Shown one piece after another: positions 6,631-33,347 of a stretch of DNA of 40,625 bases; positions within the stretch are counted from its first letter, which is position 1; each line of letters begins with the position of its first letter. The notes below the pieces were generated by a model. That model was not told where the DNA came from, ran no database searches, and saw only the letters and a program-made list of their open reading frames with translations. The translations under genes were made by a program, and so were the position numbers. This stretch comes from a virus: the UHGV virus genome UHGV-0137877; one strand, given 5' to 3'.

Positions 6631-6707
6631 TTACCTATCAGGTAACAAAATATTCTAAACTCTATTGATTTCGTGTCTTATGTGGTTTTTAATTACCTTA
6701 GAGGTAA
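6631..6707. promoter_or_regulatory. Promoter region with two operator sites (6631-6645, 6693-6707) and an ATGTGGTT element (6680-6687)
   Basis: TTACC-tatca-GGTAA and TTACC-ttaga-GGTAA; TTGATT -35-like (6665-6670) and TTTAAT -10-like (6688-6693); second site overlaps the RBS of the 6711 gene. Confidence 0.55.
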
Positions 6708-6710
6708 ATC

Positions 6711-7064
6711 ATGAGAAAACAGATACAGGCTCTTGGTCGACTCAAAACAGGCCAGATGAACAAAACAGAATCTGCGTATTGCCAGCACCTTGAGCAGCGT
6801 AAACGTGCAGGGGAAATCGCCTGGTATCGATTCGAGGGTATCAAGCTGCGGTTAGCTGACAACTGCTTCCTGACTGTAGATTTTGCCGTGATGTTGGCTG
6901 ACGGGCAGTTGGTGATGGTGGACGTTAAGGGAAGTAAGTCAGTCTTTACTGACGATGCGAGAGTCAAGATGAAGGTTGCGGCAGACAGCTATCCGTTTGT
7001 CTTTCAGGTTGCTTATCCAAAACCTAAAAAGCTCGGTGGTGGATGGGAGGTTGAGGAACTATGA
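6711..7064 (+). CDS. DUF1064-like phage protein
   Basis: 117 aa; pattern (TESAYCQHLE...W..FEGIKLRLA...DFAV...VDVKG) recalled from the DUF1064 family. Confidence 0.5.
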   Translation: MRKQIQALGRLKTGQMNKTESAYCQHLEQRKRAGEIAWYRFEGIKLRLADNCFLTVDFAVMLADGQLVMVDVKGSKSVFTDDARVKMKVAADSYPFVFQVAYPKPKKLGGGWEVEEL

Positions 7065-7669
7065 GCGAGAAGCCCAATGCTGCGGGATTGATTGTATCCG
7101 GTGATAAAAACCCGAATTGGAAGGGTGGGAAAATCGAAAAGGTTTGTTCCGTATGTGGCAGGCAATATCAGGTTAAGCGAGCCAACTCATCTTCAAGGTT
7201 CTGCTCACTTCAGTGTGTAGGAATTTCACAGCGAGGCAAGACGGTAAATCGGGAACTAAAGCGAGTATTAAAAATATGCTGCGTATGCGGATCTTCGTTC
7301 TCCGTTTTCTTGAGTCATGAGAAGCGTCATAAATGCTGCTCGAAACAGTGTTCCAACATAATGCGTTCTTCTCTGATGAAGGGGGAAGGAAATCCAAACT
7401 GGTCTGGTGGATTATCGAGATTGCCGTATCCGTGGGATTTCCGAGAAACGAGCAAGAGGGTTATTGAGCGAGATGGTTTTACTTGTCAGAACCCAGGTTG
7501 TGATGGAACAGACAAAAGGCTAACAACTCATCACATCAATTACGACAAGCAAGACTGTCGTCAGGAGAACCTTATTTGCCTTTGTTCGAGCTGTAACTCG
7601 AAGGCTAATTTCGGTCGGCATAAGTGGCAAAAGTTTTATGAATCACTGATGAAAAATAGATCGGCATGA
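7061..7669 (+). CDS. HNH endonuclease
   Basis: 202 aa; HNH core (TTHHINYDK...NLICLCSSCN) plus repeated GxKNPNWxGG and Cys-rich segments. Confidence 0.75.
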   Translation: MSEKPNAAGLIVSGDKNPNWKGGKIEKVCSVCGRQYQVKRANSSSRFCSLQCVGISQRGKTVNRELKRVLKICCVCGSSFSVFLSHEKRHKCCSKQCSNIMRSSLMKGEGNPNWSGGLSRLPYPWDFRETSKRVIERDGFTCQNPGCDGTDKRLTTHHINYDKQDCRQENLICLCSSCNSKANFGRHKWQKFYESLMKNRSA

Positions 7670-7730
7670 ATCGACGATCTTTTTAGTTATCAATGTAATC
7701 AATAAGTTATGTGGATAAGCGAGGGTAAAG

Positions 7731-8267
7731 ATGGAAAGTAATATCAAAGGGTTAGTTGCCGCCGGGCATGAGATGGCTTCGGAACTGAAAGCAGAATGTG
7801 GTGCCGTTGATATGCGCAGTGTGGCAAAGCTGCTCAGCGATTTGGCAACGCAACTGGAAGTGCAACTGGTGCGTGCTAATGCGCTGGCTGTGGAGAATGC
7901 GGGGCTGAAGTCTGGCGCTATGGGCGAAATCAAGGTTATCAACCGTGGAGGTCAGGCATATTGCGTAAAAGATGGAGTGCAAGTTAATCCCATGTATGCA
8001 AGAGGGTGGAATGACTATCGCGCAAAGTCTCTGCAATCAGACACCCCAGCCACCGACGCTTTCCTTGCTGAAGTACGGGCGCAGGGCGTGGATGCTGCTA
8101 TAGAAGCTGCAAAAAATCTGGTGGCCCAAGAATATGAGTATAAGGATTTCAAAGCGGCGCAGAGTGATTGCTGTATGCACCCTGGTTCAGACCTGGTAGG
8201 GAAGGTTGAAATGACTGAGTGGTTAGTTGACTTTGCTGAACAGCTTCGCAAAGGAGGCAACCAGTGA
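7731..8267 (+). CDS. Hypothetical nin-region protein
   Basis: 178 aa; good RBS (GAGGGTAAAG); no confident family. Confidence 0.5.
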   Translation: MESNIKGLVAAGHEMASELKAECGAVDMRSVAKLLSDLATQLEVQLVRANALAVENAGLKSGAMGEIKVINRGGQAYCVKDGVQVNPMYARGWNDYRAKSLQSDTPATDAFLAEVRAQGVDAAIEAAKNLVAQEYEYKDFKAAQSDCCMHPGSDLVGKVEMTEWLVDFAEQLRKGGNQ

Positions 8268-8563
8268 CTGTATGTCTTATTGATAAACGTCGACGTGGAC
8301 AACAAATACCATCTGTTGAAATGCCGAATCACACATGGTTTTGCGTACTTGATATCGATGGTATGGATACGTTGATCGACACTCGTCATTACTGCGATAC
8401 CGCAACAGCTACTCCTGCAAAAGCAAAGAAAATGGCTGCTCTGATAGAAAACTGGACTCCACCTGATGGTTGGTGCAATGGGAATGATCGAGATTGGCAC
8501 GAAAAAATGAAGGGCTATATCTGCGATTTTTTACGTAAATGCAACGGCTTCAGGGTGATGTGA
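8264..8563 (+). CDS. Hypothetical protein
   Basis: 99 aa; GTG start with AGGAGG RBS, overlapping the upstream stop. Confidence 0.45.
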   Translation: MTVCLIDKRRRGQQIPSVEMPNHTWFCVLDIDGMDTLIDTRHYCDTATATPAKAKKMAALIENWTPPDGWCNGNDRDWHEKMKGYICDFLRKCNGFRVM

Positions 8564-8564
8564 C

Positions 8565-9233
8565 ATGAGCAAGATTGACTATCAGGCACTGCGTGAAAAG
8601 GCAGAGAAAGCAACGTGTGGTGTGTGGTCGCTCGAATATGGAGAGGGCCGATTTGATGGTGATGATGCACTAATTCATCGCGAGGCTGCTGGGTATATTC
8701 CCATTTGCAGAATTGAAGGAGCGCATCCAGAAAGCGGTTTCGATGAAGATTTCCAAATGGAACAGCAGGCCAATGCTGAATTCATCGCCGCAGCCAGTCC
8801 AGCTACCGTGCTGGCGCTGCTGGATGAACGGGAAAGAAACCAGCAATACATCAAACGCCGCGACCAGGAGAACGAGGATATTGCGCTAACGGTAGGGAAG
8901 CTGCGCGTTGAGCTGGAAGGCAAAGACAAGCTGATTGCAGAGCTTAGAAAACAATGCGCTGAATGGGAGCGAAAAGCATTAAGCAACTTTGAAGAGTGTG
9001 CTGCGATGGCTGAACGTATCGAAAAGATGAGTAAGCAAAGTTGCGAAGCCCGGGAGCGTGATTTGTTTGAATCATGGGTAATGCATTCAATTTGTATCTC
9101 CAAATCGACGCTTGAAGGATTGCGTACCGAAACTGGATACCGTAACGCAACCTTATCAGGCACAGACTTCAACCGCATGTGGGAACAATGGAAATCTATC
9201 CGCGCCGCTGGCATTCGCACTAAAGGAGAGTGA
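8565..9233 (+). CDS. Ead/Ea22-like protein
   Basis: 222 aa; N-terminal AEFIAAASPATVLALLDE segment plus coiled-coil middle, resembling the Ea22 family. Confidence 0.45.
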   Translation: MSKIDYQALREKAEKATCGVWSLEYGEGRFDGDDALIHREAAGYIPICRIEGAHPESGFDEDFQMEQQANAEFIAAASPATVLALLDERERNQQYIKRRDQENEDIALTVGKLRVELEGKDKLIAELRKQCAEWERKALSNFEECAAMAERIEKMSKQSCEARERDLFESWVMHSICISKSTLEGLRTETGYRNATLSGTDFNRMWEQWKSIRAAGIRTKGE

Positions 9234-9234
9234 T

Positions 9235-10610: not shown

Positions 10611-10884
10611 CCTACAACTTGCCGTCAAAGGTGAATACTTCGATGCCATGATTCGCGGGGAGAAAACGGAAGAGTATCGCCTGTGCAATGACTACTGGAA
10701 TAAGCGAATTATGTTCCGGGAATATGACCGCCTGATTATCACAAAGGGATATCCGAAGCGCGACGATTCCAGTCGCAGAATTGATGTTCCGTATGGTGGA
10801 TATGAAATCAAGACAATCACACATCCGCACTTCGGTGATAAACCGGTAAAGGTGTTCGCGATAAAGGTGAATATTGATGGCTAA
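10603..10884 (+). CDS. ASCH/DUF3850-like small protein
   Basis: 93 aa; GTG start after GGAGG; LAVKGEYFDAMIRGEKTEEYR pattern. Confidence 0.4.
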   Translation: MANLQLAVKGEYFDAMIRGEKTEEYRLCNDYWNKRIMFREYDRLIITKGYPKRDDSSRRIDVPYGGYEIKTITHPHFGDKPVKVFAIKVNIDG

Positions 10885-11215
10885 ATCAGCAGCAGAGCGC
10901 AAAGCCGCGCAGCGCGCTCGGCAGTCCGCCGCCGGTGAGCGCAAAATTGAACTGGTGCTGGATAAGCAGGAGCAGGAAATGCTGGCGCGGAACTGCGCCG
11001 CCCGGCGCCCTGGTCACGATCCCTATGAAATGGCCGAGTACATCGCGCTGCTGATCCGCCAGGATGATGCACGTGTGCGCGGGCGTATAAAATCGATCAG
11101 CAGAAAACTTTGCGGTAAGTGCGGCGAGAGAGTTCCCGTTAATTCATGCCCGTGTAATGGTGACTCGCAATGCTGGGTGACTAAAGGCTGGCATGAAACG
11201 AAATTAATAGTGTGA
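10877..11215 (+). CDS. Hypothetical protein with C-terminal Cys cluster
   Basis: ORF track 10874..11215; ATG 10877 after AAGGTGA; basic N-terminus, CGKCGERVPVNSCPC. Confidence 0.45.
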   Translation: MAKSAAERKAAQRARQSAAGERKIELVLDKQEQEMLARNCAARRPGHDPYEMAEYIALLIRQDDARVRGRIKSISRKLCGKCGERVPVNSCPCNGDSQCWVTKGWHETKLIV

Positions 11216-11445
11216 CATGTCACGAAGGTGTTATGCCAAAAATACGCTACGACCTTGAAGATATGAGAGATAACTCAGCAAATTTTCCGAAAGAGGTTAA
11301 ATTTCTCATGCATAAGTATGGTTGCGCCAGGAGGGATATAGTTATCGACAGTCAGCACCCTTGCGGCGAGGATGTAATTTTCATTCGCGGTAAATGGGAA
11401 GGGTATCTTGACGAGAGTTTTTACGATGAATTTGATGGACTTTGA
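11212..11445 (+). CDS. Hypothetical protein
   Basis: 77 aa; track start is GTG at 11212 overlapping the upstream stop; alternative ATG at 11233. Confidence 0.4.
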   Translation: MTCHEGVMPKIRYDLEDMRDNSANFPKEVKFLMHKYGCARRDIVIDSQHPCGEDVIFIRGKWEGYLDESFYDEFDGL

Positions 11446-11519
11446 ATACTGCCGCCAACTATGGCGGCTTTATTTTGCATGGTACTATTACCACAACGGT
11501 AACTATTACCACGGTGGTT

Positions 11520-12116
11520 ATGATGCCTGCTGAACCTAAAACCTATAAACGCAAATCAACGCAATTTAAGCCGCTCACAGCAATGCAGGAGGCTTATTGC
11601 CAGTCATACATCAAAACGCCTGAAAACCAGACTCAGGCAGCGATTAACGCAGGATTCTCCCCAAATACAGCGGCAGTTAAAGCCAGTGTCATGATGCGCG
11701 ATGAACGCATTCAAAAACGGATTGCCGAGTTGATGGAGGAGCGCAACAAACGAATGCGCGTCAGTGCTGATTACGTTCTCATGCGCCTGGTGGAGATCGA
11801 CCAGATGGACGTGATCGACATCCTCAACGACGATGGGAGCCTTAAGCCAATCCGCGAGTGGCCGAAAATCTGGCGCACTACGCTTAGTGGCTTTGATCTG
11901 TCATCGACCATCATGAACATGAACGAGGATTCGATAGAGACAATCCTCAAAAAAATTAAATGGCCTGACAAGGTGAAGAACCTCGAACTGATTGGTAAGC
12001 ACGTCGACGTCAACGCATTCAAAGAACGCCTGGATGTTAATGTGAATGTGACAATTGCTGATCGCATAGCGGCAGCCAGGAAGAGACTGAAAGAACGTCA
12101 GGATGGCAATCAGTGA
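11520..12116 (+). CDS. Terminase small subunit
   Basis: ORF track 11442..12116; preferred ATG 11520; LTAMQEAYCQSYIKTPENQTQAAINAGFSPNTAAVKAS fits the small-terminase pattern; directly upstream of the large subunit. Confidence 0.6.
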   Translation: MMPAEPKTYKRKSTQFKPLTAMQEAYCQSYIKTPENQTQAAINAGFSPNTAAVKASVMMRDERIQKRIAELMEERNKRMRVSADYVLMRLVEIDQMDVIDILNDDGSLKPIREWPKIWRTTLSGFDLSSTIMNMNEDSIETILKKIKWPDKVKNLELIGKHVDVNAFKERLDVNVNVTIADRIAAARKRLKERQDGNQ

Positions 12117-13588
12117 CAGATACAGCGTTATCTCCTGAAGAGCAGTTAATCGAGGATATTGCAGGGTTCACTCACGATCCGCTTGGCTATGCCCTCTATG
12201 CGTTCCCATGGGGGGAAGAGGGGACTGAACTGGCACATGCCACCGGCCCACGTCAGTGGCAGGCTGATGCGTTCCGAGAGATACGTGATCACCTGCAGAA
12301 TCCAGAGACGCGCTATCAGCCGCTTATGCTGGCACGCGCTTCTGGTCACGGTATTGGTAAATCCGCATTCATCTCAATGCTGATCAACTGGGGCATGTCC
12401 ACTTGCGAGGATTGTAAGGTCGTGGTGACCGCCAACACCGACAACCAGCTACGAACGAAGACCTGGCCGGAAATTATCAAGTGGTCGAACCTTGCTATCA
12501 CGAAAGACTGGTTTACCTGTACCGCTACCGCGATGTACAGCAATGACCTAGGGCACGACAAGCGGTGGCGGGCTGACGCAATACCCTGGTCTGAGCACAA
12601 CACCGAGGCATTCGCCGGACTACACAACGAGCGCAAACGCATCATCGTGGTGTTTGATGAAGCGTCGAACATTGCGGATCTGGTGTGGGAAGTTGCCGAG
12701 GGTGCGCTTACGGACGAAGACACTGAGATTATTTGGGTGGCGTTCGGAAACCCTACACGTAACACCGGGCGTTTTCGCGAATGTTTCCGCAAATATAAAC
12801 ACCGCTGGAAAACTGCGCAGATTGACAGCCGGACGGTGGAAGGCACTAACAAACAGCAGTTGCAGAAATGGGTTGATGACTACGGGGAAGACAGCGACTT
12901 CGTTAAAATCCGTGTGCGTGGCATATTCCCTGATGCATCTGAATTGCAGTTTATCCCTACCGGTCTTACTGACGAGGCAATGAAACGGGTGGTAACCGCT
13001 GCGCAGGTTGCACATGCTCCGGTGATAATCGGCGTTGACCCGGCATACTCCGGCGTTGATGACGCTGTGATATACCTGCGGCAGGGGCTACACAGTAAGG
13101 TGCTGTGGACTGGCAACAAGACTACCGACGATCTGATTATGGCGAAGCGTATCGCTGACTTTGAAGACCAGTATCAGGCTGACGCGGTGTTCATCGACTT
13201 CGGTTACGGAACCGGTTTGAAGTCAATCGGTGACGGCTGGGGTCGTACATGGCAACTTGTTCCGTTCGGTGGCGCGTCTACTGACCCGCAGATGCTCAAC
13301 AAGCGTGGGGAGATGTTCAATTCATGCAAGACATGGCTGAGGCTGGGCGGCATGCTGGATGACCAGGAAACAGCAGACGACCTGTCGGCGGCAGAGTACA
13401 AAGTTCGAGTGGACGGTAAAATCGTTATCGAACCGAAGGAAGATATCAAGGAGCGGCTTGGGCGTTCACCGGGTAAAGGCGATGCGCTACTGCTGACGTT
13501 TGCGTTCCCTGTGTCTAAGCGTCTGCGAATTCCCGGGCAGCAGAACCAGCAAGGCAAGGCCATCACAGATTACGATCCCTATGCTTAA
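12113..13588 (+). CDS. Terminase large subunit
   Basis: 491 aa; Walker A-like ASGHGIGKS, Walker B-like VVFDEAS, C-terminal nuclease-like region. Confidence 0.85.
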   Translation: MTDTALSPEEQLIEDIAGFTHDPLGYALYAFPWGEEGTELAHATGPRQWQADAFREIRDHLQNPETRYQPLMLARASGHGIGKSAFISMLINWGMSTCEDCKVVVTANTDNQLRTKTWPEIIKWSNLAITKDWFTCTATAMYSNDLGHDKRWRADAIPWSEHNTEAFAGLHNERKRIIVVFDEASNIADLVWEVAEGALTDEDTEIIWVAFGNPTRNTGRFRECFRKYKHRWKTAQIDSRTVEGTNKQQLQKWVDDYGEDSDFVKIRVRGIFPDASELQFIPTGLTDEAMKRVVTAAQVAHAPVIIGVDPAYSGVDDAVIYLRQGLHSKVLWTGNKTTDDLIMAKRIADFEDQYQADAVFIDFGYGTGLKSIGDGWGRTWQLVPFGGASTDPQMLNKRGEMFNSCKTWLRLGGMLDDQETADDLSAAEYKVRVDGKIVIEPKEDIKERLGRSPGKGDALLLTFAFPVSKRLRIPGQQNQQGKAITDYDPYA

Positions 13589-13638
13589 TCCGCTTGAGGG
13601 GATAATGTTGTTGATATCCTCTGATGAGGATAAAACAA

Positions 13639-13658
13639 AGCCAGCTCATAGGCTGGCT
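13639..13658. terminator. Bidirectional terminator between the terminase gene and the convergent 124-aa ORF
   Basis: AGCCAGC-tcatag-GCTGGCT hairpin flanked by A-run upstream and T-rich downstream. Confidence 0.6.
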
Positions 13659-13678
13659 GTTTGTGATATGTCACGGTG

Positions 13679-14053
13679 TTATTGCTCGCTTAACTTCTGC
13701 TTCAGCAAGTAACCTTCAAGCATCCAGATTTTGTTTACAGCATTCTGTCGGGCAATCTTCCGACCAATTTCTGCATCAAAGTTTTCCGGGCTTGCACAGG
13801 CGCTCTCTCCGGTGACGGTGAAGCCGTTGCGCAGCACCAGGACGCAGAAAGTGAGAAGGTGCAGAGCATCAGGGGTGGCTTCGACATAAGGCTCTGGATT
13901 ATAAATAAGGTCATCTTCTTTAGCCTGATGATCCCCCTGCGCAGCAGTAAAAAAATGCTCACTGCAAATGAGACCTTCAATTTTCTCAGGAGTTACACGA
14001 GGTGCCGTTTTACCTTTCTCAACGATTTCTTTTTCGATTTGCTGGTCGTTCAT
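13679..14053 (-). CDS. Hypothetical protein (inverted insert between terminase and portal)
   Basis: 124 aa; ATG at 14053 with AAGGTGA RBS; opposite strand to all flanking virion genes. Confidence 0.6.
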   Translation of the reverse strand: MNDQQIEKEIVEKGKTAPRVTPEKIEGLICSEHFFTAAQGDHQAKEDDLIYNPEPYVEATPDALHLLTFCVLVLRNGFTVTGESACASPENFDAEIGRKIARQNAVNKIWMLEGYLLKQKLSEQ

Positions 14054-14063
14054 AATCTCACCT

Positions 14064-14088
14064 TAAAAAAATGCCCGGCGAACCGGGC
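14064..14088 (-). terminator. Rho-independent terminator between the tRNA and the 124-aa ORF
   Basis: GCCCGG-cgaa-CCGGGC hairpin followed by a U7 run on the minus strand, ending 10 nt before the ORF's RBS. Confidence 0.6.
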
Positions 14089-14257
14089 GAACTGGAAGCA
14101 ATGAGTTATGCCTTCCGTGGCTGTACTGGTTTACAGCATGAAGTCATCGCAATGGCGTCCTGCTGTAAAAAGGGCAAGGGCGGTGATAGTCCTTCAAGGG
14201 AAACCATCACCGCCAAGCACCTGGAACTTCTGGCATCACGGTCCTTAGGCGTGATTC

Positions 14258-14334
14258 TGGCGTGGCATGCAGGATTCGAACCTGCGACCAACCGCTTAGA
14301 AGGCGGTTGCTCTGTCCAACTGAGCTAATGCCAC
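14258..14334 (-). tRNA. tRNA-Arg (anticodon UCU)
   Basis: 77-nt cloverleaf folded by hand: 7-bp acceptor stem, D-arm GCTC/GAGC, anticodon stem ACCGC/GCGGT with loop CTTCTAA, T-arm GCAGG-TTCGAAT-CCTGC, discriminator G, encoded CCA. Confidence 0.9.
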
Positions 14335-14656
14335 AACGCTGAGAGCACTTAGCCTGTTAAGGCGCCACACTTTGTCGCGGCTCCATAAATGCTCTCATCG
14401 TTGTACCCTCGTCTCTTCCGAGGCGTCACACCGAATCGCCGGGATGGTGAATCCCCGTGCGCGGAATAAAACCGCTCGACTTGCACATTCCGGCTACCTG
14501 GTTCGTTTGCCACAGCCAGGGAGGGTGCCCCTTAAACGTATCCAGACCGCTATCGGCGCATGTGCCATACGCCGTACTGCTCAAAATAAAAGCTCACTCC
14601 ACCTGTTTAATTTAACGACAAGCCAGTCAGGTTAGTAACCAGAATGAGCCCTTTGG

Positions 14657-14734
14657 TTACCTGAAAGGTAATAATTAACGCGTTAAATGTCAACCTTCTA
14701 CGATAAATAAATCATATGTGGTTAAATTGGTAAT
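14657..14734. promoter_or_regulatory. Late-operon promoter region: operator (14657-14671), ATGTGGTT (14716-14723), GGTAAT (14729-14734)
   Basis: Perfect TTACC-tgaaa-GGTAA, then the same ATGTGGTT-N5-GGTAA arrangement seen at 33323-33340. Confidence 0.55.
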
Positions 14735-14761
14735 AATTTAATTGCGTACGGAGTCATTGAT

Positions 14762-14968
14762 ATGTGCATGGGTAGCTCACCATCAGTGCCTGCAACACCA
14801 GAAGTTCAGGCAGCACCACAGGAGCAGGATGCCGCCGTTGTTGATGCCCGCGACGAAGAAACACGTCGCCGTCGCGCTGCTGCTGGTCGTAGTTCTACGC
14901 TGCTTACCGGTTCTCAGGGCGACACATCAACCGCTAATACCAGCGGTAAAACGCTGCTTGGTCAGTAA
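14762..14968 (+). CDS. Small hypothetical protein upstream of portal
   Basis: 68 aa; GGAG RBS; its initiation region is almost identical to the portal gene's. Confidence 0.45.
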   Translation: MCMGSSPSVPATPEVQAAPQEQDAAVVDARDEETRRRRAAAGRSSTLLTGSQGDTSTANTSGKTLLGQ

Positions 14969-14982
14969 CCGGAGTCATTGAA

Positions 14983-16955: not shown

Positions 16956-16957
16956 TC

Positions 16958-23613: not shown

Positions 23614-26126
23614 TGCCAGTCGTACCAACAGTATCCGGCCGTCAGGTTCAGAGCCGTGGAGTTCAGTCAGCAGGCTTGCAGACGTTTTCTCAGCCAGGTA
23701 TTGGTGATGCTTTTGTTCGGGCAGGGACAGAGGCAATTGATGTTTTTGGTCAGGCAAAACAGCGTGCCAATATCGCTCTGGCTCAGGAGGCATCTCTTAA
23801 CCTCAGTCAGATAAGCAGTGATCTGCTGAATAATCCTGAAACAGGATTGCTTAACCTGAAAGGGAAAAATGCTATTGGAAAAGGTCAGGAGTATACGCAG
23901 CAGTTTGATGCTCAGGTCGAACAACTGGCTATGTCGCTGCCGGATGAACAGGCTCGTAATGCTTTCATGCAGCAGGCGCAGCAGCAGCGCATTCAGTTCA
24001 CTACGCAGGCAGGGCGGCACGAGATAGGGCAAATAAATGCCTACGAAGAAGGCCAGTTTCAGGCTACGCTGCTGAACAATGGTAAAAATGCCGCAGCATT
24101 GTATGGCGACAACGTCGCATACGTATTGGCTAATAAGCAAACTTTCCAGCAAATTGAGGATTACGGCATTGCACATGGCTGGAGTGACGAGCAAATCCAG
24201 GCCAAGAAAATCGAGTTTAAAGAAGCAACAGCAAAAGCAACTGCTCAAAATGCTATTGGAGCAAACTATCTTCAGGTAAGACAGCAAAACGGCGAGTTAA
24301 GCGATACTGCTGCTGGATCTCGCCGTGCTGTAGCAGATAGTGGCTCTTCCGATCGTACCCGCGGTATACGCAACAATAACCCCGGCAATCTTGAATACAG
24401 CAAAACTAATCCGTGGGTTGGGCAGACTGGTGATGATGGTCGCTTTGCCAAATTCGAAACCCCTGAACACGGTATTCGTGCATTAGGGCGGAACCTGATG
24501 TCGTATCAGCGGCAGGGTATTGATACCGTCAGCGAGATAATTAATCGCTGGGCACCGCCTACTGATAAAAATGACACTATGTCGTATATCAAAGCAGTGT
24601 GCGAACAACTTGGCGTTTCTGCTGATGAGCCTCTCGATGCATCAAATCCTGATACCCTGAAGGCGCTTTGTGCAGCCATTATCCATCATGAAAACGGTAG
24701 CCAGCCATACAGTGATCAGCAGTTAACTGCAGGTGTTAGTGCTGCGCTGGGGCTTTCTCAGCTACCGACAAAAAATAAACGTTATACCGGTGTAGCCTGG
24801 TTCGATGCTTTAAGTGAATCAGATCAGGCCAGCGTGTTGCGACAGACTGATGCACTAGCCAGACAACAGCAGGCTGAATATAAAACGATGCTCGACAGCC
24901 GGGTTCGCGATGCGACGGCTGCGTATATGCGTGGCGTTGAATTTCCTAACCCACCTGGTGAGGATGATTTTATTGCAGCTTATGGAGTCAGAGAAGGAAA
25001 CCTGCGATATACCGAGTTTAAGAATACGCAGATCGCCGGACAGTATATCGGCTCTTTCCGCAACATGCCGACAAGCAGCATTACAGCATATGTTGAGCAA
25101 TTACGCCCGGATACTGGTGAAACAGGGGAGGGGTATGCGGCACGCGCAGCTCTTTATGACAACGTTGTTTCGGCTGCAAATCAGGTGATAAAGCAGCGGC
25201 AGTCGGATCCTGTGCAGTTCTCTCTTGCCTCCGGACAGACAAAGCCTATCGACATGAGCAATAAGGATAACTTTGGACAGAGCGTTGCCTTGCGTGCCGC
25301 TCAGGTCAGTGACCTTGCTAAGTCATATGGCACTCCACTGACGTTCTTTTCCAAAGACGAGGCCAATCAGATCGGTGTTTTCTTTCGTGATGCTCCAGTT
25401 TCCCAACAGGCAGCATATCTCGATACCATCAGGCAGAGCACTGGTGGTGGGCAGGTGTATATGTCAGCACTACAGCAGATCAGTGCCAACGCTCCATCTG
25501 CTGCCGTTGCCGGGATACTGATGGACAAGCCTGGTGGTATTTTGGCAGAAAAAAACTGGTTTAATCCGGATGTTTCCGTGTCTCCTGAAACCGCTGCGCA
25601 GACAATTCTTGCTGGCGCGGCGGCTCGTAAAGGTACTGATGATGCGAAAGGTATTCCGATGCCTAAAGATGCTGATCTTCGCCTTGAGTTTTCTGACATG
25701 GTGAAGGATGCATTTGCTGGTGATGCTCAGGGGGCATCAATGGCATACGAGATCGCAAAGGACTATTACGCTGGTGTGATGGCGAAAAAAGGCGTGATAT
25801 CAGGTGAAATTGACACTGATATCTGGAAACAGGCTGTTAACGTAGCTACAGGTGGCGTGCATGACTATAACGGAATGGGGAATGTCCTTTTGCCGTGGGG
25901 AATGTCTGCAGAGCAATTCGATAAGCAGGTTAATCAGGCTTGGAATGAACAAGTTGTCGGCACTGGGATAAAAACACCGCCTGGTCAGTATGGTTTGCAA
26001 AGTTACGGCGATAGTCAGTATCTGGTGAAACTTGGTACTGGTTATCTGCTGAAAGATGATGGTTCTCCTGTTGTTCTTGATCTGACACAGAAGCGTCAGA
26101 GATTCTCCGGAGATATTCCGCAATGA
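23613..26126 (+). CDS. Internal virion/ejection protein (gp15-like)
   Basis: ORF track 23538..26126; preferred ATG 23613 after GGAGG; 837 aa; contains RGIRNNNPGNL...AIIHHENG segment. Confidence 0.5.
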   Translation: MPVVPTVSGRQVQSRGVQSAGLQTFSQPGIGDAFVRAGTEAIDVFGQAKQRANIALAQEASLNLSQISSDLLNNPETGLLNLKGKNAIGKGQEYTQQFDAQVEQLAMSLPDEQARNAFMQQAQQQRIQFTTQAGRHEIGQINAYEEGQFQATLLNNGKNAAALYGDNVAYVLANKQTFQQIEDYGIAHGWSDEQIQAKKIEFKEATAKATAQNAIGANYLQVRQQNGELSDTAAGSRRAVADSGSSDRTRGIRNNNPGNLEYSKTNPWVGQTGDDGRFAKFETPEHGIRALGRNLMSYQRQGIDTVSEIINRWAPPTDKNDTMSYIKAVCEQLGVSADEPLDASNPDTLKALCAAIIHHENGSQPYSDQQLTAGVSAALGLSQLPTKNKRYTGVAWFDALSESDQASVLRQTDALARQQQAEYKTMLDSRVRDATAAYMRGVEFPNPPGEDDFIAAYGVREGNLRYTEFKNTQIAGQYIGSFRNMPTSSITAYVEQLRPDTGETGEGYAARAALYDNVVSAANQVIKQRQSDPVQFSLASGQTKPIDMSNKDNFGQSVALRAAQVSDLAKSYGTPLTFFSKDEANQIGVFFRDAPVSQQAAYLDTIRQSTGGGQVYMSALQQISANAPSAAVAGILMDKPGGILAEKNWFNPDVSVSPETAAQTILAGAAARKGTDDAKGIPMPKDADLRLEFSDMVKDAFAGDAQGASMAYEIAKDYYAGVMAKKGVISGEIDTDIWKQAVNVATGGVHDYNGMGNVLLPWGMSAEQFDKQVNQAWNEQVVGTGIKTPPGQYGLQSYGDSQYLVKLGTGYLLKDDGSPVVLDLTQKRQRFSGDIPQ

Positions 26127-27925: not shown

Positions 27926-27930
27926 ATTAA

Positions 27931-30405: not shown

Positions 30406-30414
30406 GGAAGTGTT

Positions 30415-30588: not shown

Positions 30589-30600
30589 ATAGGTGACTAC

Positions 30601-30897
30601 ATGCAAGCGATAGGATTCATTGTTTATATCGTCGTTGGCCTTTTTCAGTTGGCAGCAATTATGGCTGGGCTTGAATCATGGTGGGGATTGCACTGGATAA
30701 TTGCAGCCCCCATTGCTTTCATCGTGAGCTATATTCCATTTGTTGGAGCGATTGTTGGTATGGTTGGCGCTGTGGATGTATGGCGGTGGGAGTGGTGGCA
30801 GGCTGGCCTTCTCTTCTTTGGTGGGATCATCTTTGCTATTGTCTGCGGTGGAATGTCATCATTTTTCGAATGGCTATCATTCAGAAAAGGGACGTGA
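30601..30897 (+). CDS. Trp-rich integral membrane protein
   Basis: 98 aa; AGGTGA RBS; three or four hydrophobic helices; last gene of the late operon. Confidence 0.55.
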   Translation: MQAIGFIVYIVVGLFQLAAIMAGLESWWGLHWIIAAPIAFIVSYIPFVGAIVGMVGAVDVWRWEWWQAGLLFFGGIIFAIVCGGMSSFFEWLSFRKGT

Positions 30898-30905
30898 CAT
30901 GTCAC

Positions 30906-30930
30906 AGGCCGCTTTCGCGGCCTTGTTTTT
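30906..30930 (+). terminator. Rho-independent terminator ending the late operon
   Basis: AGGCCGC-tttc-GCGGCCT followed by TGTTTTT. Confidence 0.65.
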
Positions 30931-30970
30931 AACGAATGCCACCGCCACCCGGGCGGGAATCCGCAGACAC

Positions 30971-30992
30971 AAAAAAGCCCGCAGAGCGGGCT
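30971..30992 (-). terminator. Rho-independent terminator after the DUF2335-like gene
   Basis: AGCCCGC-aga-GCGGGCT followed by a U6 run on the minus strand; overlaps the stop codon. Confidence 0.6.
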
Positions 30993-31540
30993 TACTTTTC
31001 TTCAGGTTTATTGTCTTCAGATTTCTTCTTGATGCTTGGTTTTTGTCTAAGAACGAAAATACCAGCCACTGCAACAACTGTACCGATCACTGTGCCTGCT
31101 AGAACTTCATGACCTGTTAAACCTAATAATGTTGCACAAGCTACTGTAAAAATAGTTGCACTCAGGCCAAACCACTGCCCACGTTTATCTCTATTAATAG
31201 CCCCGTCAAGTGCCTTTTCCTCCATTTTCTGGCGGTGAGCAAACTCCTTCTCCGTCAGCTGGAAGATGCGTTCGGGGGCATCAGGTAAAATATCCTGATA
31301 CCCGCGAAGCAGATAGGGGGGAGGAAGCGGACCCTGAAACGCATGGTGAGCGACAACTATCTCCTGAATTTCAGGGCGATCAAGAACTCTTGTGAAGGCA
31401 TCTGGGTGTTGAATGATCTCGTTACTTAGCCCTTCCTCAACTTCCTCGAACTCAGTTTCTTCGTTATCACTTGGTTGCCCAATAGATTTTTGCATATTTG
31501 TCGAAGGACATTCCTTTAGCTTCTGGTTTTCCTCTTGCAT
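30992..31540 (-). CDS. DUF2335-like membrane protein
   Basis: 182 aa (167 if it starts at the internal ATG 31495); acidic N-terminus, PPPYLL...ERIFQLTEKEFAHRQ core, two C-terminal transmembrane helices, Lys-rich tail. Confidence 0.55.
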   Translation of the reverse strand: MQEENQKLKECPSTNMQKSIGQPSDNEETEFEEVEEGLSNEIIQHPDAFTRVLDRPEIQEIVVAHHAFQGPLPPPYLLRGYQDILPDAPERIFQLTEKEFAHRQKMEEKALDGAINRDKRGQWFGLSATIFTVACATLLGLTGHEVLAGTVIGTVVAVAGIFVLRQKPSIKKKSEDNKPEEK

Positions 31541-31793
31541 TTGAGTTTTTCCCTGTCACTATTGCCCATTTTCCGCCAGCAGGCGCTGCAATTTTTTTTC
31601 CGTTCTTTACTATATATTCAGCATAAACACGATTTTCTGACCGTCTGAGATCGTCTCCGACCATATTCATGTCTCTTGATATAACTTTGACGACAGAGTC
31701 TCTGTTTAAAGCCTTGGCATAGTTGGAGCCAGGAACGATACCCAAAGGGGTGCCAGACTCTATAGCCAGCTCCTTGACATATCTTCTGCTCAT
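31467..31793 (-). CDS. Small basic protein, overlaps the DUF2335-like gene
   Basis: 108 aa from ATG 31793 (GAGG RBS 6 nt upstream); overlaps the next ORF by 29-74 nt in another frame; own promoter with operator. Confidence 0.4.
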   Translation of the reverse strand: MSRRYVKELAIESGTPLGIVPGSNYAKALNRDSVVKVISRDMNMVGDDLRRSENRVYAEYIVKNGKKIAAPAGGKWAIVTGKNSNARGKPEAKGMSFDKYAKIYWATK

Positions 31794-31813
31794 ATGAACC
31801 TCAACCAATCGAC

Positions 31814-31847
31814 TTTACCAATCGGGTAATTTTAAACATGAGTATAA
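31814..31847 (-). promoter_or_regulatory. Promoter with operator site for the 108-aa/DUF2335-like pair
   Basis: Perfect TTACC-aatcg-GGTAA (31814-31828) 14 bp downstream of a minus-strand TATACT -10-like hexamer (31842-31847). Confidence 0.5.
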
Positions 31848-31914
31848 TGCTTTTAACTGCAACGAGTGTAAACAATTATTGATAATTGTAGGCACATCCC
31901 TGTGCCGCCGCCCG

Positions 31915-32625
31915 TCAGAAGAACCCTGCCTTGTCGTTGATGTACTCCGCGTGAGTCTGGATATCACGCAGGCATTTGCTCACACCAACGATGTAGCAGA
32001 ACATGCTGGTCAGCTCCGCCGCCGCGCCCGATACATCGTGCCCGTCTTCCTGCAACTGGTTCAGCAAATTCATCAGCAGTGAGTTCTCCGTCAGGCCGAG
32101 AACACCAGACGGCGAATGAATCAGGCTACGGTAGCCGGGCTTCAGTGGGGCGCTGTAGGTTTTGTTCTCTATCTTCATTGCCTGCATCACTGCTGATGCT
32201 GTGGCGTTGGCTACCTGGTCGGCAACCATCTTTATGCGTTCTTCCTGCGGGAGCGAGTTTTTAATGTAACTTCCGGTGCGGCGGATCTGAGGAAGAACCT
32301 CACCTGTAACCCATTTACGAAAGCGGTAGGGGATAGTGCCTGGTGTCACCGCATCGCGGCAGCGGAGGATCAGTGTGTAGAGGCCTGACTCGGAGATGAT
32401 GTTGATCTCTTTTACTCGGCTGTCAAAAATTGCACGATGTTCATGCCCTATGTTGAACATAGACCTTTCATCATCATCCAGTTTTTCAAGTGCTTGGGTG
32501 ACGTTTTGGATACGCAGCGCACTACAAACGTCTTGGGCTACAAACCATGGTTGGCCATCGATAATGATGGAACGGATAGGGTTAACAGATTCAAATTTGA
32601 AGATGGCAGTTTGAGCATTAGCCAT
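31915..32625 (-). CDS. Antirepressor (BRO-N domain plus Ant-type C-terminal domain)
   Basis: ORF track 31915..32640; preferred ATG 32625 after GGAGAT; N-terminal FKFESVNPIRSIIIDGQPWFVAQDVCSAL is a classic BRO-N start. Confidence 0.8.
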   Translation of the reverse strand: MANAQTAIFKFESVNPIRSIIIDGQPWFVAQDVCSALRIQNVTQALEKLDDDERSMFNIGHEHRAIFDSRVKEINIISESGLYTLILRCRDAVTPGTIPYRFRKWVTGEVLPQIRRTGSYIKNSLPQEERIKMVADQVANATASAVMQAMKIENKTYSAPLKPGYRSLIHSPSGVLGLTENSLLMNLLNQLQEDGHDVSGAAAELTSMFCYIVGVSKCLRDIQTHAEYINDKAGFF

Positions 32626-32781
32626 GGTGGTTATCTCCACTTAGTGATTTTAATCACCACCGCAACGCCAATTACTGGTGGTGAACTGGACAAGGTTGGC
32701 GTACCGGCCTAAGTGGTACCGGCGTCCTTTCGGACCCCTGCCCAGCCCACCATAATTCGGATATAGCTGTGCTTAACGCAT

Positions 32782-32803
32782 AAAAAAACCACGTCTGGCG
32801 TGG
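32782..32803 (-). terminator. Rho-independent terminator between the two antirepressor genes
   Basis: CCACG-ccaga-CGTGG followed by a U7 run on the minus strand. Confidence 0.6.
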
Positions 32804-32894
32804 TATGCGCCACTTAGTAACTCGGGACGCCAATCCCGGCACTGGATTTTGCCAGTGCTCAATTACTATGGCACAAGAGGAGTGCGATGTAAAT

Positions 32895-32909
32895 TTACCG
32901 CAAAGGTAA
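32895..32909. promoter_or_regulatory. Operator site (TTACC-gcaaa-GGTAA) downstream of the small antirepressor gene
   Basis: Perfect 15-bp palindrome of the operator family. Confidence 0.5.
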
Positions 32910-32940
32910 ATATAAGCACTCCACTTGGTAATTGCAAACC

Positions 32941-33198
32941 TTATCTGGTTTGTTTTCGTAATTGTTCGGCACAATAGTCGAGATGTGTTTGCAGATCCTG
33001 CATAGACATCTGTGAGCTGGTGACGTAGTTAATCAGTGCAGTCAGTTCGGCAAGTGGGCCATCGACATTAAATCCATCCTTATCGAGATCCCGGAGTAAT
33101 TTCATCAAGTGCGATCCCTCCACCAGTGACCTGACGCCTCCCGGCGTGTGAATCCTTTCGGTAAATCCGTCTTCCAGTGGATAGTGATACTGCTGCAT
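32941..33198 (-). CDS. Small antirepressor-like protein (Ant C-terminal domain only)
   Basis: ORF track 32941..33213; preferred ATG 33198 after GGAGAAG; roughly half its residues are identical to the C-terminal 85 residues of the 31915-32625 antirepressor (IHTPGGV...LMKLL..L...G..V.G..AELT...). Confidence 0.65.
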   Translation of the reverse strand: MQQYHYPLEDGFTERIHTPGGVRSLVEGSHLMKLLRDLDKDGFNVDGPLAELTALINYVTSSQMSMQDLQTHLDYCAEQLRKQTR

Positions 33199-33220
33199 CT
33201 TAATCTTCTCCATGCAATAA

Positions 33221-33236
33221 CTGTATATTTATACAG
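33221..33236. promoter_or_regulatory. LexA (SOS) box
   Basis: CTGTATATTTATACAG, a perfect CTGT-N8-ACAG palindrome with AT-rich centre, 8 bp upstream of the small antirepressor ORF. Confidence 0.8.
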
Positions 33237-33275
33237 TAGCAAATAATTTGTTTGCTATCCAGCACGTTTTGCAAA

Positions 33276-33347
33276 TTACCTGAAAGGTAATATCTATTCG
33301 TATTCACAGTCTTTCTATCCATATGTGGTTTTTCAGGTAATAGAATA
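33276..33347. promoter_or_regulatory. Tailspike promoter region: operator (33276-33290), ATGTGGTT (33323-33330), GGTAAT/TAGAAT -10-like
   Basis: Perfect TTACC-tgaaa-GGTAA; same layout as the 14657-14734 region. Confidence 0.55.

Follow-up and report, generated by a model that had tools for sequence, protein, structure and literature searches.

A conserved 14-bp near-palindrome in the leaders of a phiV10/epsilon15-type phage, a probable docking site for a second phage regulator

Several activators bind sites that take the place of a missing -35 element: lambda CII at PRE, PI and PaQ, T4 MotA at the MotA boxes, Lpa at the P1 late promoters and the restriction-modification controller proteins at their C-boxes. 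Other operators lie in the spacers of early promoters or at start sites and serve to shut off early transcription, as do the lambda and P22 Cro sites, the P22 Arc site at Pant and the P2 Cox sites. Some proteins combine both activities. Controller proteins activate at one position and repress at another, the small P2 Cox protein represses one promoter and activates another, and phi29 p4, depending on site position, represses early promoters or activates a late promoter that lacks a -35.

The window analyzed here, the 40,625-nucleotide stretch UHGV-0137877, is the genome of a phiV10/epsilon15-type (Uetakevirus) temperate phage. In this group, Rep operators (epsilon15/SPC32H-type, ATTACC-N5-GGTAAT) precede most transcription units. 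The same genomes and the same leaders carry another motif, an imperfect 14-bp palindrome with the consensus A-w-C-C-A-T-A-T-r-T-G-G-T-T, which was unannotated in every GenBank record examined. Both motifs are palindromic with an ACC...GGT core, occur many times per genome and are usually neighbors. However, the palindrome has a conserved 6-bp centre (ATATrT) and the arms AwCCA/TGGTT, whereas the Rep operator has a free 5-bp centre and the arms TTACC/GGTAA. The relevant features of the window are as follows.

3590 to 3603, plus strand: degenerate copy filling the -35/-10 spacer of the leftward early promoter, ATGCTTATTTGGTT
3704 to 4288, minus strand: Rep, the prophage repressor, which binds TTACC-N5-GGTAA operators; rival candidate binder, with the palindrome as an auxiliary site
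4443 to 4673, plus strand: cro-position gene for a 76-aa homologue of epsilon15 gp39; putative leading candidate binder
4749 to 4762, plus strand: copy downstream of the cro-position gene, AACCAAATCTGGTT, 5 nt 3' of operator 4729-4743
6631 to 6707, no strand: two Rep operators (6631-6645 and 6693-6707) flanking the DUF1064 promoter and its element
6665 to 6693, plus strand: predicted sigma-70-like promoter frame of DUF1064, consisting of TTGATT (6665-6670), 3 nt, the 14-mer and TTTAAT (6688-6693)
6674 to 6687, plus strand: DUF1064 (middle-operon) promoter copy, TGTCTTATGTGGTT, with the octamer at 6680-6687
14657 to 14671, no strand: Rep operator paired with the portal element, TTACCTGAAAGGTAA, centres 52.5 bp apart
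14710 to 14723, plus strand: portal/head-operon leader copy, AATCATATGTGGTT
14728 to 14737, plus strand: predicted portal -10-like box of extended -10 form, TGgTAATAAT (TTGGTAATAAT), 7 nt past the element, invariant
32937 to 32950, plus strand: copy 5' of the leftward isrK/C4/ant promoter, AACCTTATCTGGTT, abutting its -35
33276 to 33290, no strand: Rep operator paired with the tailspike element, TTACCTGAAAGGTAA, centres 40.5 bp apart
33317 to 33330, plus strand: tailspike leader copy, ATCCATATGTGGTT
33336 to 33346, plus strand: predicted tailspike -10-like box, GGTAATAGAAT (TAATAG or TAGAAT), 7 to 10 nt past the element
36747 to 36760, plus strand: lysis-cassette leader copy, ATTCATATATGGTT, followed by TACTAT

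The initial annotation had described an octamer, ATGTGGTT, at the heads of three rightward operons, 5 nt upstream of either a full operator or a GGTAA half-site. Its positions (6680, 14716 and 33323, all on the plus strand) and the 5-nt gaps are exact: 6680-6687 is followed after 5 nt by the operator TTACCTTAGAGGTAA (6693-6707), 14716-14723 by AAATT and GGTAA, and 33323-33330 by TTTCA and GGTAA. The number of octamers is at chance level (3 versus 1.45 expected, with at least 3 in 16 of 100 shuffles). The element is nevertheless real, as indicated by the exact composite ATGTGGTT-N5-GGTAA (2 found versus 0.0013 expected), by the location of all three copies in leaders, 31, 46 and 72 nt ahead of start codons, by the enrichment of the 14-mer AACCATATATGGTT (7 matches with up to 3 mismatches in the window versus 1.7 expected; 0 of 100 shuffles), and by conservation at orthologous sites. 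Its tie to the heads of rightward lytic units is likewise supported. The octamer itself is not the unit. It reads as the right, best-kept arm of the 14-bp near-palindrome.

The window contains six or seven copies. The list of three had missed those at 36747-36760, 4749-4762 and 32937-32950, and the element is not specific to middle and late units, since copies lie in the DUF1064, portal, tailspike and lysis leaders and also 3' of the cro-like gene and 5' of the isrK/C4/ant promoter, and the leftward early promoter holds a degenerate one. The reported absence from this last promoter is true of the exact octamer but not of the palindrome.

A motif search in relatives, as had been proposed, showed the palindrome enriched in 8 of 8 Uetakevirus genomes (4-9 copies each versus about 1-2 expected). 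Three phages without Rep and Rep operators showed no such enrichment, and among the genomes compared the palindrome was found only alongside the Rep/cro-position module. Orthologous sites are kept in Escherichia, Salmonella, Enterobacter and Klebsiella phages whose flanks have diverged, and the palindrome is almost variant-free among 49-75 prophage haplotypes. Among 24 palindromes, the conserved columns are A (23/24), C (22/24), G (24/24), G (23/24), T (23/24) and T (24/24), and the central ATAT is conserved as well. The gap between CC and GG is 6 bp versus 5 bp in the Rep operator, two positions ahead of CC, 23 of 24 palindromes have A whereas 76 of 84 operators have T, and the centre of these 84 operators is unconserved. 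By these differences, the palindrome is a second class of site, distinct from TTACC-N5-GGTAA. Its neighborhood is fixed: except for the lysis leader (36747), every well-matched copy has an operator at a stereotyped distance. The centres are 19.5, 19.5, 21.5, 40.5, 41.5, 42.5, 42.5, 43.5 and 52.5 bp apart, all nine within 1.5 bp of a multiple of 10.5 bp, which has a naive chance of ~1e-5 to 1e-4 in a test that was picked post hoc.

In the portal leader, ATATGTGGTTAAATTGGTAATAATTTAA is invariant in 8 genomes, and TGGTT with the next 16 nt shows no variation in 49 haplotypes. The supposed GGTAA half-site is part of the portal -10-like box and is better read as gg followed by TAATAn. No -35 was found 16-18 bp upstream of this box, and the promoter scan returned zero sigma-70-like promoters in 13500-14800. 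The operator at 14657-14671, whose epsilon15 orthologue is annotated in GenBank as a repressor binding site, overlaps the -10 and the start of a possible leftward promoter (TTGACA, the reverse complement of 14688-14693, then 17 nt and TACCTT). The tailspike copy has the orthologues ATTCATATAAGGTT (epsilon15 and SPN1S), ATTCATATATGGTT (Klebsiella phages) and ATACATATACGGTT (Tyrion). The -10-like box of the tailspike leader is invariant in 7 genomes, and the next 15 nt differ. Neither leader contains anything -35-like, and the sole invariant blocks are the operator, the element and the -10-like box. The layout of these two leaders would fit the earlier suggestion of a late-activator site or a special promoter element.

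The lysis leader copy is a perfect AACCATATATGGTT over all 14 bp in phiV10 and Tyrion. In the window, no Rep operator lies within 230 bp upstream of it, and this leader is shared with the viable temperate phage ZX5. The element is probably transcribed here because a conserved RNA hairpin begins within it, at the second G of GGTT.

The early and middle copies are arranged differently. Good conservation of the DUF1064 copy is confined to its right half (tTGTGGTT, TTATGGTT or AACCGTATATGGAT in 7 genomes); cTTATGTGGTT is nearly constant in a set of 75 E. coli prophage haplotypes, in which two nucleotides of the left arm vary freely. In the predicted promoter, 7 genomes keep TTGAww and the A/T-rich box unchanged, and the final T of TTTAAT is base 1 of operator 6693-6707. 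The promoter scan does not list it, as its -10 has no A at position 2. The leftward early promoter, which scored 10/12 in the scan, reads on the minus strand TTGACA (3612-3607), 3 nt, the 14-mer and AATTAT (3589-3584), with an operator at 3570-3584. Its copy is nearly perfect in Tyrion (ATCCATATATGGTT), reads ATGCGTATATGGTT in some E. coli prophages and is missing in epsilon15/SPN1S. The location between -35 and -10 at both promoters would be a repressor position.

The copy at 4749-4762 follows the terminator of the cro-position gene, ahead of the gp40/replication genes, and is kept in 8 of 8 genomes (AACCATATACGGTT, ATCCATATATGGTT or ATCCAAATACGGTT). The copy at 32937-32950, also present in phiV10 and Tyrion, adjoins a leftward promoter, TTGCAA-17-TATATT (32937..32909), that carries operator 32895-32909 and is predicted to drive isrK, the C4 RNA and a Bro-type antirepressor.

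A second phage regulator probably docks at the palindrome. A literature search found no binding or start-site mapping for the element, and we infer the binder and the sign of its effect from site positions and from the distribution of candidate proteins. Our leading, still tentative, reading is that the phage encodes a helix-turn-helix protein that binds the palindrome as a dimer, the cro-position protein being the likeliest candidate, helping late promoters without a -35 and hindering early ones. This protein belongs to phrog_35 ('transcriptional repressor'). Its AlphaFold model (pLDDT 86) has five helices and a lambda-repressor-like domain, with YdaS, the 434 and P22 c2 repressor domains and restriction-modification controller proteins as the nearest folds (TM 0.5-0.66). 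The family is restricted to phiV10/epsilon15-type phages, and its AGTTSHYIQTH stretch is nearly invariant (one cluster has SNY for SHY, one Y for L). The helix-turn-helix is weakly related to that of Rep, with a different recognition helix. Rep was found in 40 phage records, where the SPC32H record labels its homologue 'rep: repressor', and the cro-position protein in 37 records, with 48 clusters among 5.8 billion proteins. The two proteins are as narrowly distributed as the two motifs and occur in the same phages. Two other candidates fit worse. The gp49 homologue also occurs in Pantoea phage AH07 (N-terminal half highly conserved, 63% identity overall), which has no such palindromes, and many unrelated phages carry the gp40 zinc ribbon.

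The cro-position gene (4443-4673) would be the first transcribed from the rightward early promoter, isolated by its own terminator. A dimer of its small lambda-repressor-like product would bind the copies, which lie within or right beside the predicted core of most lytic transcription units under Rep control. At tailspike and portal, the site would replace the missing -35, 7 nt before the -10-like box, and the bound protein would recruit or stabilize host RNA polymerase and switch these units on. At DUF1064 and the leftward early promoter, the same protein, bound in the -35/-10 spacer, would lower transcription.

This arrangement partly matches the systems described above. The tailspike and portal leaders resemble promoters with -35-replacing activator sites in lacking a -35 and in pairing a -10-like box with a conserved site, here predicted at about -36 to -20, but the palindrome also occurs in spacers and possibly at a start site, and CII sites, unlike the palindrome, are direct repeats. 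The candidate's modeled fold resembles both controller proteins and phage repressor domains. As with the Cro, Arc and Cox sites, the palindrome occupies the -35/-10 interval at early promoters (DUF1064 and leftward early), and like Cro, the candidate is a small helix-turn-helix protein encoded in the cro position. In contrast, classical Cro shares the operators of the repressor and should act at the rightward early/rep promoter region, where we found no copy of the element, and copies at the heads of late genes are unexpected for it. Any resemblance to phi29 p4 would be functional only and is hypothetical; the protein and the host are unrelated, and p4 sites lie further upstream. Also against the cro-position protein, element placement relative to promoter features is non-uniform (in the spacer, 5' of the -35, or in the lysis transcript), most positions appear to fit a repressor better than an activator, and activation of 'late' genes by the first-made lytic protein would be unusual timing. 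In addition, the terminase promoter has no copy of the element, and the module as a whole is so nearly invariant that protein and site offer no covariation to compare.

The stereotyped operator spacing raises the main rival, namely that Rep itself could be the partner. Here the palindrome would be a weak, non-canonical site for the second DNA-binding pair of a Rep tetramer that is anchored by a strong operator on the same face, 2, 4 or 5 turns away, and the palindrome, over the promoter core, would be filled by cooperativity or a small loop, silencing each lytic unit in the lysogen. We consider this possible but rather doubtful. Rep is a tetramer with two DNA-binding pairs according to a review, and work by Kim and colleagues from 2016 reportedly came to the same view. 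The late-leader operators lie ~65-80 bp upstream of the likely start, too distant to block polymerase alone, the ACC...GGT core is common to both motifs, and placement in spacers or at start sites fits repression. GGTT may even be tolerated by Rep, as the right arm of the terminase-leader operator is GGTTA in E. coli phages and Tyrion versus GGTAA in Salmonella phages. However, the arms, spacing and centre of the palindrome are systematically unlike the 84 operators, a third Rep site seems superfluous at a DUF1064 promoter already flanked by two canonical operators, and the lysis leader of the window and ZX5 has the palindrome without an operator. The portal operator is also explained by the leftward TTGACA-17-TACCTT promoter, which weakens the phasing argument.

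It is unlikely that the element acts as RNA, at the 5' end or in the 5' untranslated region of lytic mRNAs, as the base of leader hairpins that guide RNase III processing, affect mRNA stability or mask the ribosome-binding site. Several features of the lysis leader fit this. Its 24-bp stem (-32 to -35 kcal/mol, z = -6.1), with the second G of GGTT as first base, is retained at the same place in the divergent leader of the window. Five pairs show compensatory changes, the stretch is marked as an RNase III site in the epsilon15 GenBank record, and an outer helix, CAUA...UAUG, would occlude the start codon. Yet this hairpin needs neither two-fold DNA symmetry nor a conserved left arm, and the 14-mer alone would form only a 5-bp stem as RNA. 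The 14-pair hairpin of the portal leader takes in TATGTGGTT, and the only two variable columns of the region change with pairing kept or improved, but this hairpin is weak (z = -1.8) and lacks any double compensatory change. The tailspike element lies outside any conserved structure, upstream of a strong hairpin, and the DUF1064 and leftward early elements, between -35 and -10, would not be transcribed from those promoters.

An unusual core promoter, with spacer or upstream contacts for the host sigma-70 holoenzyme and no dedicated regulator, is improbable. It would account for the constant 7-nt gap to the -10-like boxes of the three late leaders and for the exact fit of the element into the 17-bp spacer of two promoters. 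However, the distance to the -10 varies by class (0-2 nt versus 7 nt), polymerase would have no use for dyad symmetry, ATGTGG matches TTGACA at 2/6 positions, and the terminase promoter is a plain extended -10 without the element.

We regard a host-factor site (DnaA, CRP, IHF or another nucleoid protein) as very improbable. The portal octamer at 14716 does read TTAACCACA, an 8/9 match to the DnaA box, but the orthologous variants ATATGGTT, ATAAGGTT and ATACGGTT break the DnaA core CACA. The CRP right arm TCACA is absent, the IHF sites predicted near operators in the epsilon15 record do not coincide with the element, and the motif occurs only where the Rep/cro-position module does.

Least probable of all is a lack of function, through chance matches (the octamer count being at chance level) or a duplicated leader cassette (with ATGTGGTT-N5-GGTAATA in common, the portal and tailspike copies may be paralogues). 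The element persists in phages of four host genera although their flanks have diverged, is enriched in every Uetakevirus genome examined and is constrained among prophage haplotypes.

The variant ATGTGGAT, earlier listed as a further copy, is present at 7709..7716 on the plus strand, as well as at 34743, but was rejected as a family member: at 7709 it departs from the 14-mer at 6 positions, and no operator is close by. On the opposite strand the 7709 copy matches the DnaA-box consensus TTATCCACA perfectly, and in phiV10 this variant accompanies an eae-like gene.

A 14-bp near-palindrome recurs in the leaders of the middle, head, tailspike, and lysis genes. The initial annotation had described part of it, an octamer at 6680, 14716, and 33323, placed 5 nt upstream of either a GGTAA half-site or a full operator, and these coordinates and 5-nt gaps were all correct when checked on the sequence. 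All three octamers lie on the coding strand, 31-72 nt 5' of start codons, and the exact composite ATGTGGTT-N5-GGTAA was found twice (0.0013 expected). The octamer alone was found three times versus 1.45 expected, with three or more copies in 16 of 100 shuffles; its count being at chance level, it was dropped as the unit in favor of the 14-mer. A scan of eight Uetakevirus genomes (the window, phiV10, epsilon15, SPN1S, Tyrion, and three Klebsiella phages) identified the octamer as the right half of this near-palindrome, and phiV10 and Tyrion have a perfect version (AACCATATATGGTT) in their lysis leaders. At three or fewer mismatches, the 14-mer was found 7 times in the window (1.7 expected; none of 100 shuffles reached this count) and 4-9 times per genome in all eight genomes, versus about 1-2 expected. 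In AH07, zth2-2, and phiSG1, all without Rep, the prophage repressor, and its operators, it did not exceed background. Among 24 distinct copies, the column counts were A(23) w C(17) C(22) A(20) T(21) A(21) T(23) r T(20) G(24) G(23) T(23) T(24). In every copy, the better-kept arm is the right one, and it is directed toward the late genes. The copies in the window are:

6674-6687, DUF1064 leader (middle operon)
14710-14723, portal leader (head operon)
33317-33330, tailspike leader
36747-36760, lysis leader
4749-4762, 3' of the terminator of the cro-position gene
32937-32950, upstream of the leftward isrK/C4/ant promoter
3590-3603, degenerate copy in the leftward early promoter

The orthologous sites in epsilon15 read ATGTGGTT (portal), ATAAGGTT (tailspike), and TTGTGGTT (resolvase leader), and the epsilon15 lysis leader carries ATGTGGTT as a fourth copy at the head of the lysis cassette. 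The relatives thus show that the feature is real, although only half of the unit had been seen and a wrong site had been named as the fourth copy. That site, the ATGTGGAT "variant" at 7709, has six mismatches and no operator and does not belong to the family. A second ATGTGGAT at 34743, inside the tailspike gene, was also rejected. Matches at 8327 and 33774 are chance-like (three mismatches, intragenic, no nearby operator). The rep/rightward early promoter region contains three operators and no copy of the element; CCTCATATATGAAT at 4303 in this region was discarded as it is not conserved.

The 40.6-kb window represents a temperate Uetakevirus podophage. In aligned parts it is ~97% identical to the Escherichia phages EC.W1-9, TL-2011b, ZX5, and phiV10, and it is ~79% identical to Salmonella phage epsilon15. 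Its gene order agrees with the annotated phiV10 and epsilon15 records:

First in window order, leftward early operon
3704-4288, minus strand, rep repressor gene
4443-4673, rightward, cro-position gene (small helix-turn-helix protein, homologue of epsilon15 gp39), then a terminator
After the cro-position gene, gp40 and replication genes, then a terminator
After the replication genes, DUF1064 gene and accessory genes through the gp49 homologue, then a terminator
After the gp49 homologue, terminase genes, then a terminator
Between terminase and portal, leftward, tRNA-Arg and small genes
After the tRNA-Arg region, portal/head/virion operon, then a terminator
Before the tailspike gene, leftward, antirepressor genes
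Last in window order, tailspike gene, then lysis cassette

A minus-strand terminator (36522-36539) directly follows the tailspike stop codon and has no leftward gene to serve. It probably remains from an O-antigen conversion module, which in relatives separates the tailspike gene from the lysis cassette; the operator-like site of this module is also missing in the window.

In alignments of the four leaders, the element stands out as an invariant island. In the portal leader, ATATGTGGTTAAATTGGTAATAATTTAA is the same in all eight genomes and the flanks are unalignable. The conserved blocks of the tailspike leader are the LexA box of the divergent ant gene, the operator, TCATATnnGGTTT, and GGTAATAGAAT. 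The window version of the lysis leader shares with the others only TCATATATGGTTTAyTrTG and the bases immediately 5' of the start codon and is otherwise unrelated to them. Retrieval of related loci returned solely 99-100% identical E. coli prophages. Among 49 portal-leader haplotypes of these close relatives, TGGTT and the following 16 nt are free of variants. In the DUF1064 leader (75 haplotypes), cTTATGTGGTT is nearly invariant, with two left-arm positions varying freely.

Promoter positions relative to the element were all predicted from the sequence. In the tailspike, portal, and most lysis leaders, a -10-like hexamer starts exactly 7 nt after GGTT: TAATAG (or TAGAAT) for tailspike, TAATAA preceded by TG for portal, and TATAAT or TATGAT for lysis. 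What had been taken for a GGTAA half-site is this -10-like box. No -35 was found in these leaders, and a promoter scan was blank for the portal leader and for the plus strand of the tailspike leader. ATGTGG matches the sigma-70 hexamer TTGACA at 2 of 6 positions, which argues against a -35 box. Conservation ends just beyond the -10-like box, as expected of a core promoter. If transcription began ~6-8 nt past GGTAATAGAAT and TGGTAATAAT, the element would span roughly -36 to -20, a position suited to an activator site.

The DUF1064 and leftward early promoters are arranged differently. Each has a -35 (TTGATT and TTGACA, respectively) followed by 3 nt, the 14-mer, and an A/T-rich -10, so that the element forms the spacer, and the operator begins on the final T of the -10. 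The leftward early promoter had been described as lacking the element; the copy that fills its spacer is degenerate. The gap between the element and the -10 is 0-2 nt in these two promoters and in the window lysis leader versus 7 nt in the portal, tailspike, and most lysis leaders. The copy at 32937 abuts the -35 of a leftward sigma-70-like promoter, which has its own operator and drives the IsrK and C4 RNAs and a Bro-type antirepressor. The terminase leader (11450-11520) has a terminator, then a promoter with a plain extended -10 (TGgTACTAT), then two overlapping operators, and no 14-mer; the right arm of its second operator is GGTTA in the E. coli phages and Tyrion and GGTAA in the Salmonella phages. 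Leftward promoters beside the late-leader copies were rejected, as the left flanks are unconserved and the right flanks conserved. In phage ZX5, four promoters were predicted and none mapped (PMC9782041).

The lysis leader also contains an RNA hairpin (-32 to -35 kcal/mol, z = -6.1) that starts at the second G of GGTT and includes the TATAAT in its stem. It is conserved between two unrelated leader versions, with the window's different leader keeping a stem at the same place, and five pairs show compensatory changes:

36758-36811, lysis-leader hairpin in the window (24747-24801 in relative L003 and 24759-24813 in relative L002)

Because the hairpin begins inside the element, some lysis transcripts, if not all, probably have their 5' ends in the element or upstream of it. 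A long conserved RNA stem that includes the element is present in the lysis leader, weak in the portal leader, and absent from the tailspike leader. The RNA-level role is real for the lysis leader and does not generalize to the others. The first lysis gene would have its start codon masked by an outer CAUA...UAUG helix, the 3' arm in relatives contains a 6-codon mini-ORF (ATG CAC AGT AAA CGG TGG TAA), and the epsilon15 record labels the hairpin stretch as an RNase III site.

The element was then compared with the Rep operator. The operator palindrome TTACCTnnnAGGTAA, the "operator" of the initial annotation, was found 15 times in the window with up to two mismatches (0.85 expected), and its epsilon15 orthologues are annotated in GenBank as repressor binding sites. 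The 84 distinct operators have TTACC/GGTAA arms around five unconserved central bases, whereas the element has AwCCA/TGGTT arms around six conserved ones (ATATrT). The base two positions before CC is A in 23 of 24 element copies and T in 76 of 84 operators. The element thus lies outside the Rep-operator family in both its arms and its spacing.

Nearly all copies have an operator at a stereotyped distance. The operator-to-element start-to-start offsets are -53 (portal), -41 (tailspike), -42 (isrK/C4/ant promoter), -44 (lysis), -43 and +19 (DUF1064), and -20 (post-cro copy and leftward early promoter, the latter also +42). Centers are 19.5-21.5, 40.5-43.5, or 52.5 bp apart, each no more than 1.5 bp away from 2, 4, or 5 turns of the helix. 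This phasing, examined by a test picked post hoc, is suggestive of protein contacts on the same face of the DNA. The element could then be an auxiliary Rep site, occupied via the phased operator. As the main rival, such a site would explain the spacing and the repressor-like positions more readily, and the distinct sequence and the window lysis leader, which has no operator, less readily; we consider it doubtful. The viable temperate phage ZX5 has the same operator-less lysis leader (PMC9782041). The portal-leader operator can alternatively be accounted for by a leftward promoter in the 14657-14693 region, TTGACA (reverse complement of 14688-14693, invariant in eight genomes)-17 nt-TACCTT, which overlaps it and points toward tRNA-Arg(TCT) (14258-14334, minus strand, between the terminase and portal genes). 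This may be a Rep-controlled tRNA-Arg promoter.

Both classes of palindromic motif occur together with, and only with, two helix-turn-helix proteins encoded in the immunity region. Rep was found in 40 phage records and the cro-position protein in 37; among 5.8 billion proteins, only 48 clusters belong to the latter, none below 61% identity. No distant relatives of Rep or gp39 were found in the phage collection. The helix-turn-helix regions of the two proteins are weakly related and read differently, and their recognition helices are almost unchanged. Because these helices and both motifs are nearly invariant, covariation of the sites with either protein could give no signal. The AlphaFold model of the cro-position protein (pLDDT 86) is a five-helix lambda-repressor-like domain, with YdaS, the 434 and P22 c2 DNA-binding domains, and restriction-modification controller proteins as the nearest folds (TM 0.5-0.66, weak E-values). 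Proteins with the lambda-repressor-like fold often act as dimers on palindromes of 14-17 bp.

The operator class is assigned to Rep on the basis of the GenBank annotation, review text, and work by Kim et al. in 2016, which reportedly supports this binding. Since the operators are assigned to Rep, and gp49 and gp40 fit worse, the cro-position protein, a candidate picked for its fold and distribution, appears by elimination to be the best candidate binder of the second site class, with Rep in a second binding mode as a less likely one. A promoter/regulator reading of the element is reasonable as a hypothesis. Our tentative proposal, short of an even chance, is that the element serves as the DNA target of a dimeric regulator encoded by the phage, most likely the cro-position protein, whose effect would depend on register. 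The bound regulator would help the polymerase at the -35-less tailspike and portal promoters and hinder it at the DUF1064 and leftward early promoters, where the element is the spacer. In a bolder and rather unlikely form of this proposal, the cro-position protein would be a master timing switch, with its own palindrome, rather than the repressor's operators, in nearly every lytic unit. The spacer site would shut the early promoters, the site over the -35 position would fire the -35-less head, tailspike, and lysis promoters, and Rep at operators 2, 4, or 5 turns away would counteract. This would explain a late program without a Q-type antiterminator or a late sigma factor.

Sites that replace the -35 (lambda CII, the T4 MotA box, P1 Lpa, the C-boxes of controller proteins) would be comparable to the element in the tailspike and portal leaders, which by sequence have a -10-like box without a -35, and not to that in the DUF1064 and leftward early promoters with their -35 hexamers. 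The latter would be closer to the spacer operators of Arc, Cro, and Cox. Single proteins that both activate and repress include phi29 p4, P2 Cox, and controller proteins. Unlike Cro, which shares the operators of the repressor, the cro-position protein as a timing switch would have its own palindrome.

The gp49 homologue (10874-11215; phrog_536; putative ribbon-helix-helix with a Cys-rich tail), the last gene before terminase, fits worse as the late activator. Its homologue in Pantoea phage AH07, which lacks the palindromes, is 63% identical (58% by tblastn), with the N-terminal half most similar; homologues also occur in N15, phiKO2, and Vibrio phages, and no Pfam, NCBIfam, or PDB match was found. 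The gp40 zinc-ribbon protein was rejected as binder, being widespread in unrelated phages, including lytic ones. The DnaA box TTATCCACA is matched at 9/9 positions at 7709, 8/9 at 14716, and 6/9 at 6680 and 33323, and the orthologues ATATGGTT and ATAAGGTT lose CACA, which argues against the element being a DnaA box. By eye, neither a sigma-54 -24/-12 pattern nor a CRP site fits.

The element is a regulatory site of a familiar kind and involves no new principle. It is annotated in none of the fetched phage records, and a literature text search for the motif returned unrelated primer sequences only, an earlier description being possible in subscription papers outside this search. No late regulator or late promoter is defined in the accessible records and papers; the repressor/antirepressor switch has been studied. 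phiV10, epsilon15, SPN1S, and SPC32H serve as models of temperate podophages and as reporter and typing phages. The presence of a second, strongly conserved class of site in the leaders of the head, tailspike, lysis, and middle operons offers an entry to late-gene control and gives a phage group without a recognized late regulator a direct experimental handle. With about six sites, a single short motif, and two proteins as candidates, the question is tractable. When these phages are engineered, inserting a reporter or deleting sequence close to the leaders could abolish the element.

Several further features were observed. The hybrid contig L076 (1-12700; IMGVR_UViG_3300045988_054982), which is a natural mosaic or else a chimeric assembly, fuses a lambda-type early region (Gam, Kil, N, SieB, CI, Cro, CII, O, P, Ren, NinB) to a Uetakevirus gp49-terminase-portal region that retains its operators and the element in the portal leader. 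As a single metagenome contig, in which lambda N read-through could replace late promoters, it is uninformative about the required protein. At 7709-7717, ATGTGGATAA reads on the minus strand as a perfect DnaA-box consensus (TTATCCACA), 22 nt before an eae-like ORF (7731-8267), and this arrangement is repeated in phiV10 at 35534. A 12-bp palindrome, GTGACATGTCAC (11212-11223), lies at the stop codon of the gp49 homologue and is conserved across phiV10, epsilon15, SPN1S, and Tyrion; it resembles a CRP site except that its center spans 4 bp instead of 6 bp. The 5' leader of the cro-position gene contains an inverted repeat, ATATTTAT...ATAAATAT (4405-4435), common to the window and Tyrion and different in sequence in the Salmonella and Klebsiella phages.

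A LexA box, CTGTATATTTATACAG (33221-33236), invariant in seven genomes, precedes the leftward SPC32H-type antirepressor gene (32941-33213, minus strand). This box agrees with the SOS control of the antirepressor that was reportedly described for SPC32H. A P1-like immunity-I module (31915-32950, minus strand) has a TTGCAA-17-TATATT promoter with a Rep operator, followed by IsrK, C4, and an antirepressor:

32782-32858, minus strand, IsrK RNA
32674-32757, minus strand, C4 antisense RNA
31915-32640, minus strand, Bro-N antirepressor gene

With this module and the SPC32H-type gene, the phage therefore has two antirepressor systems.
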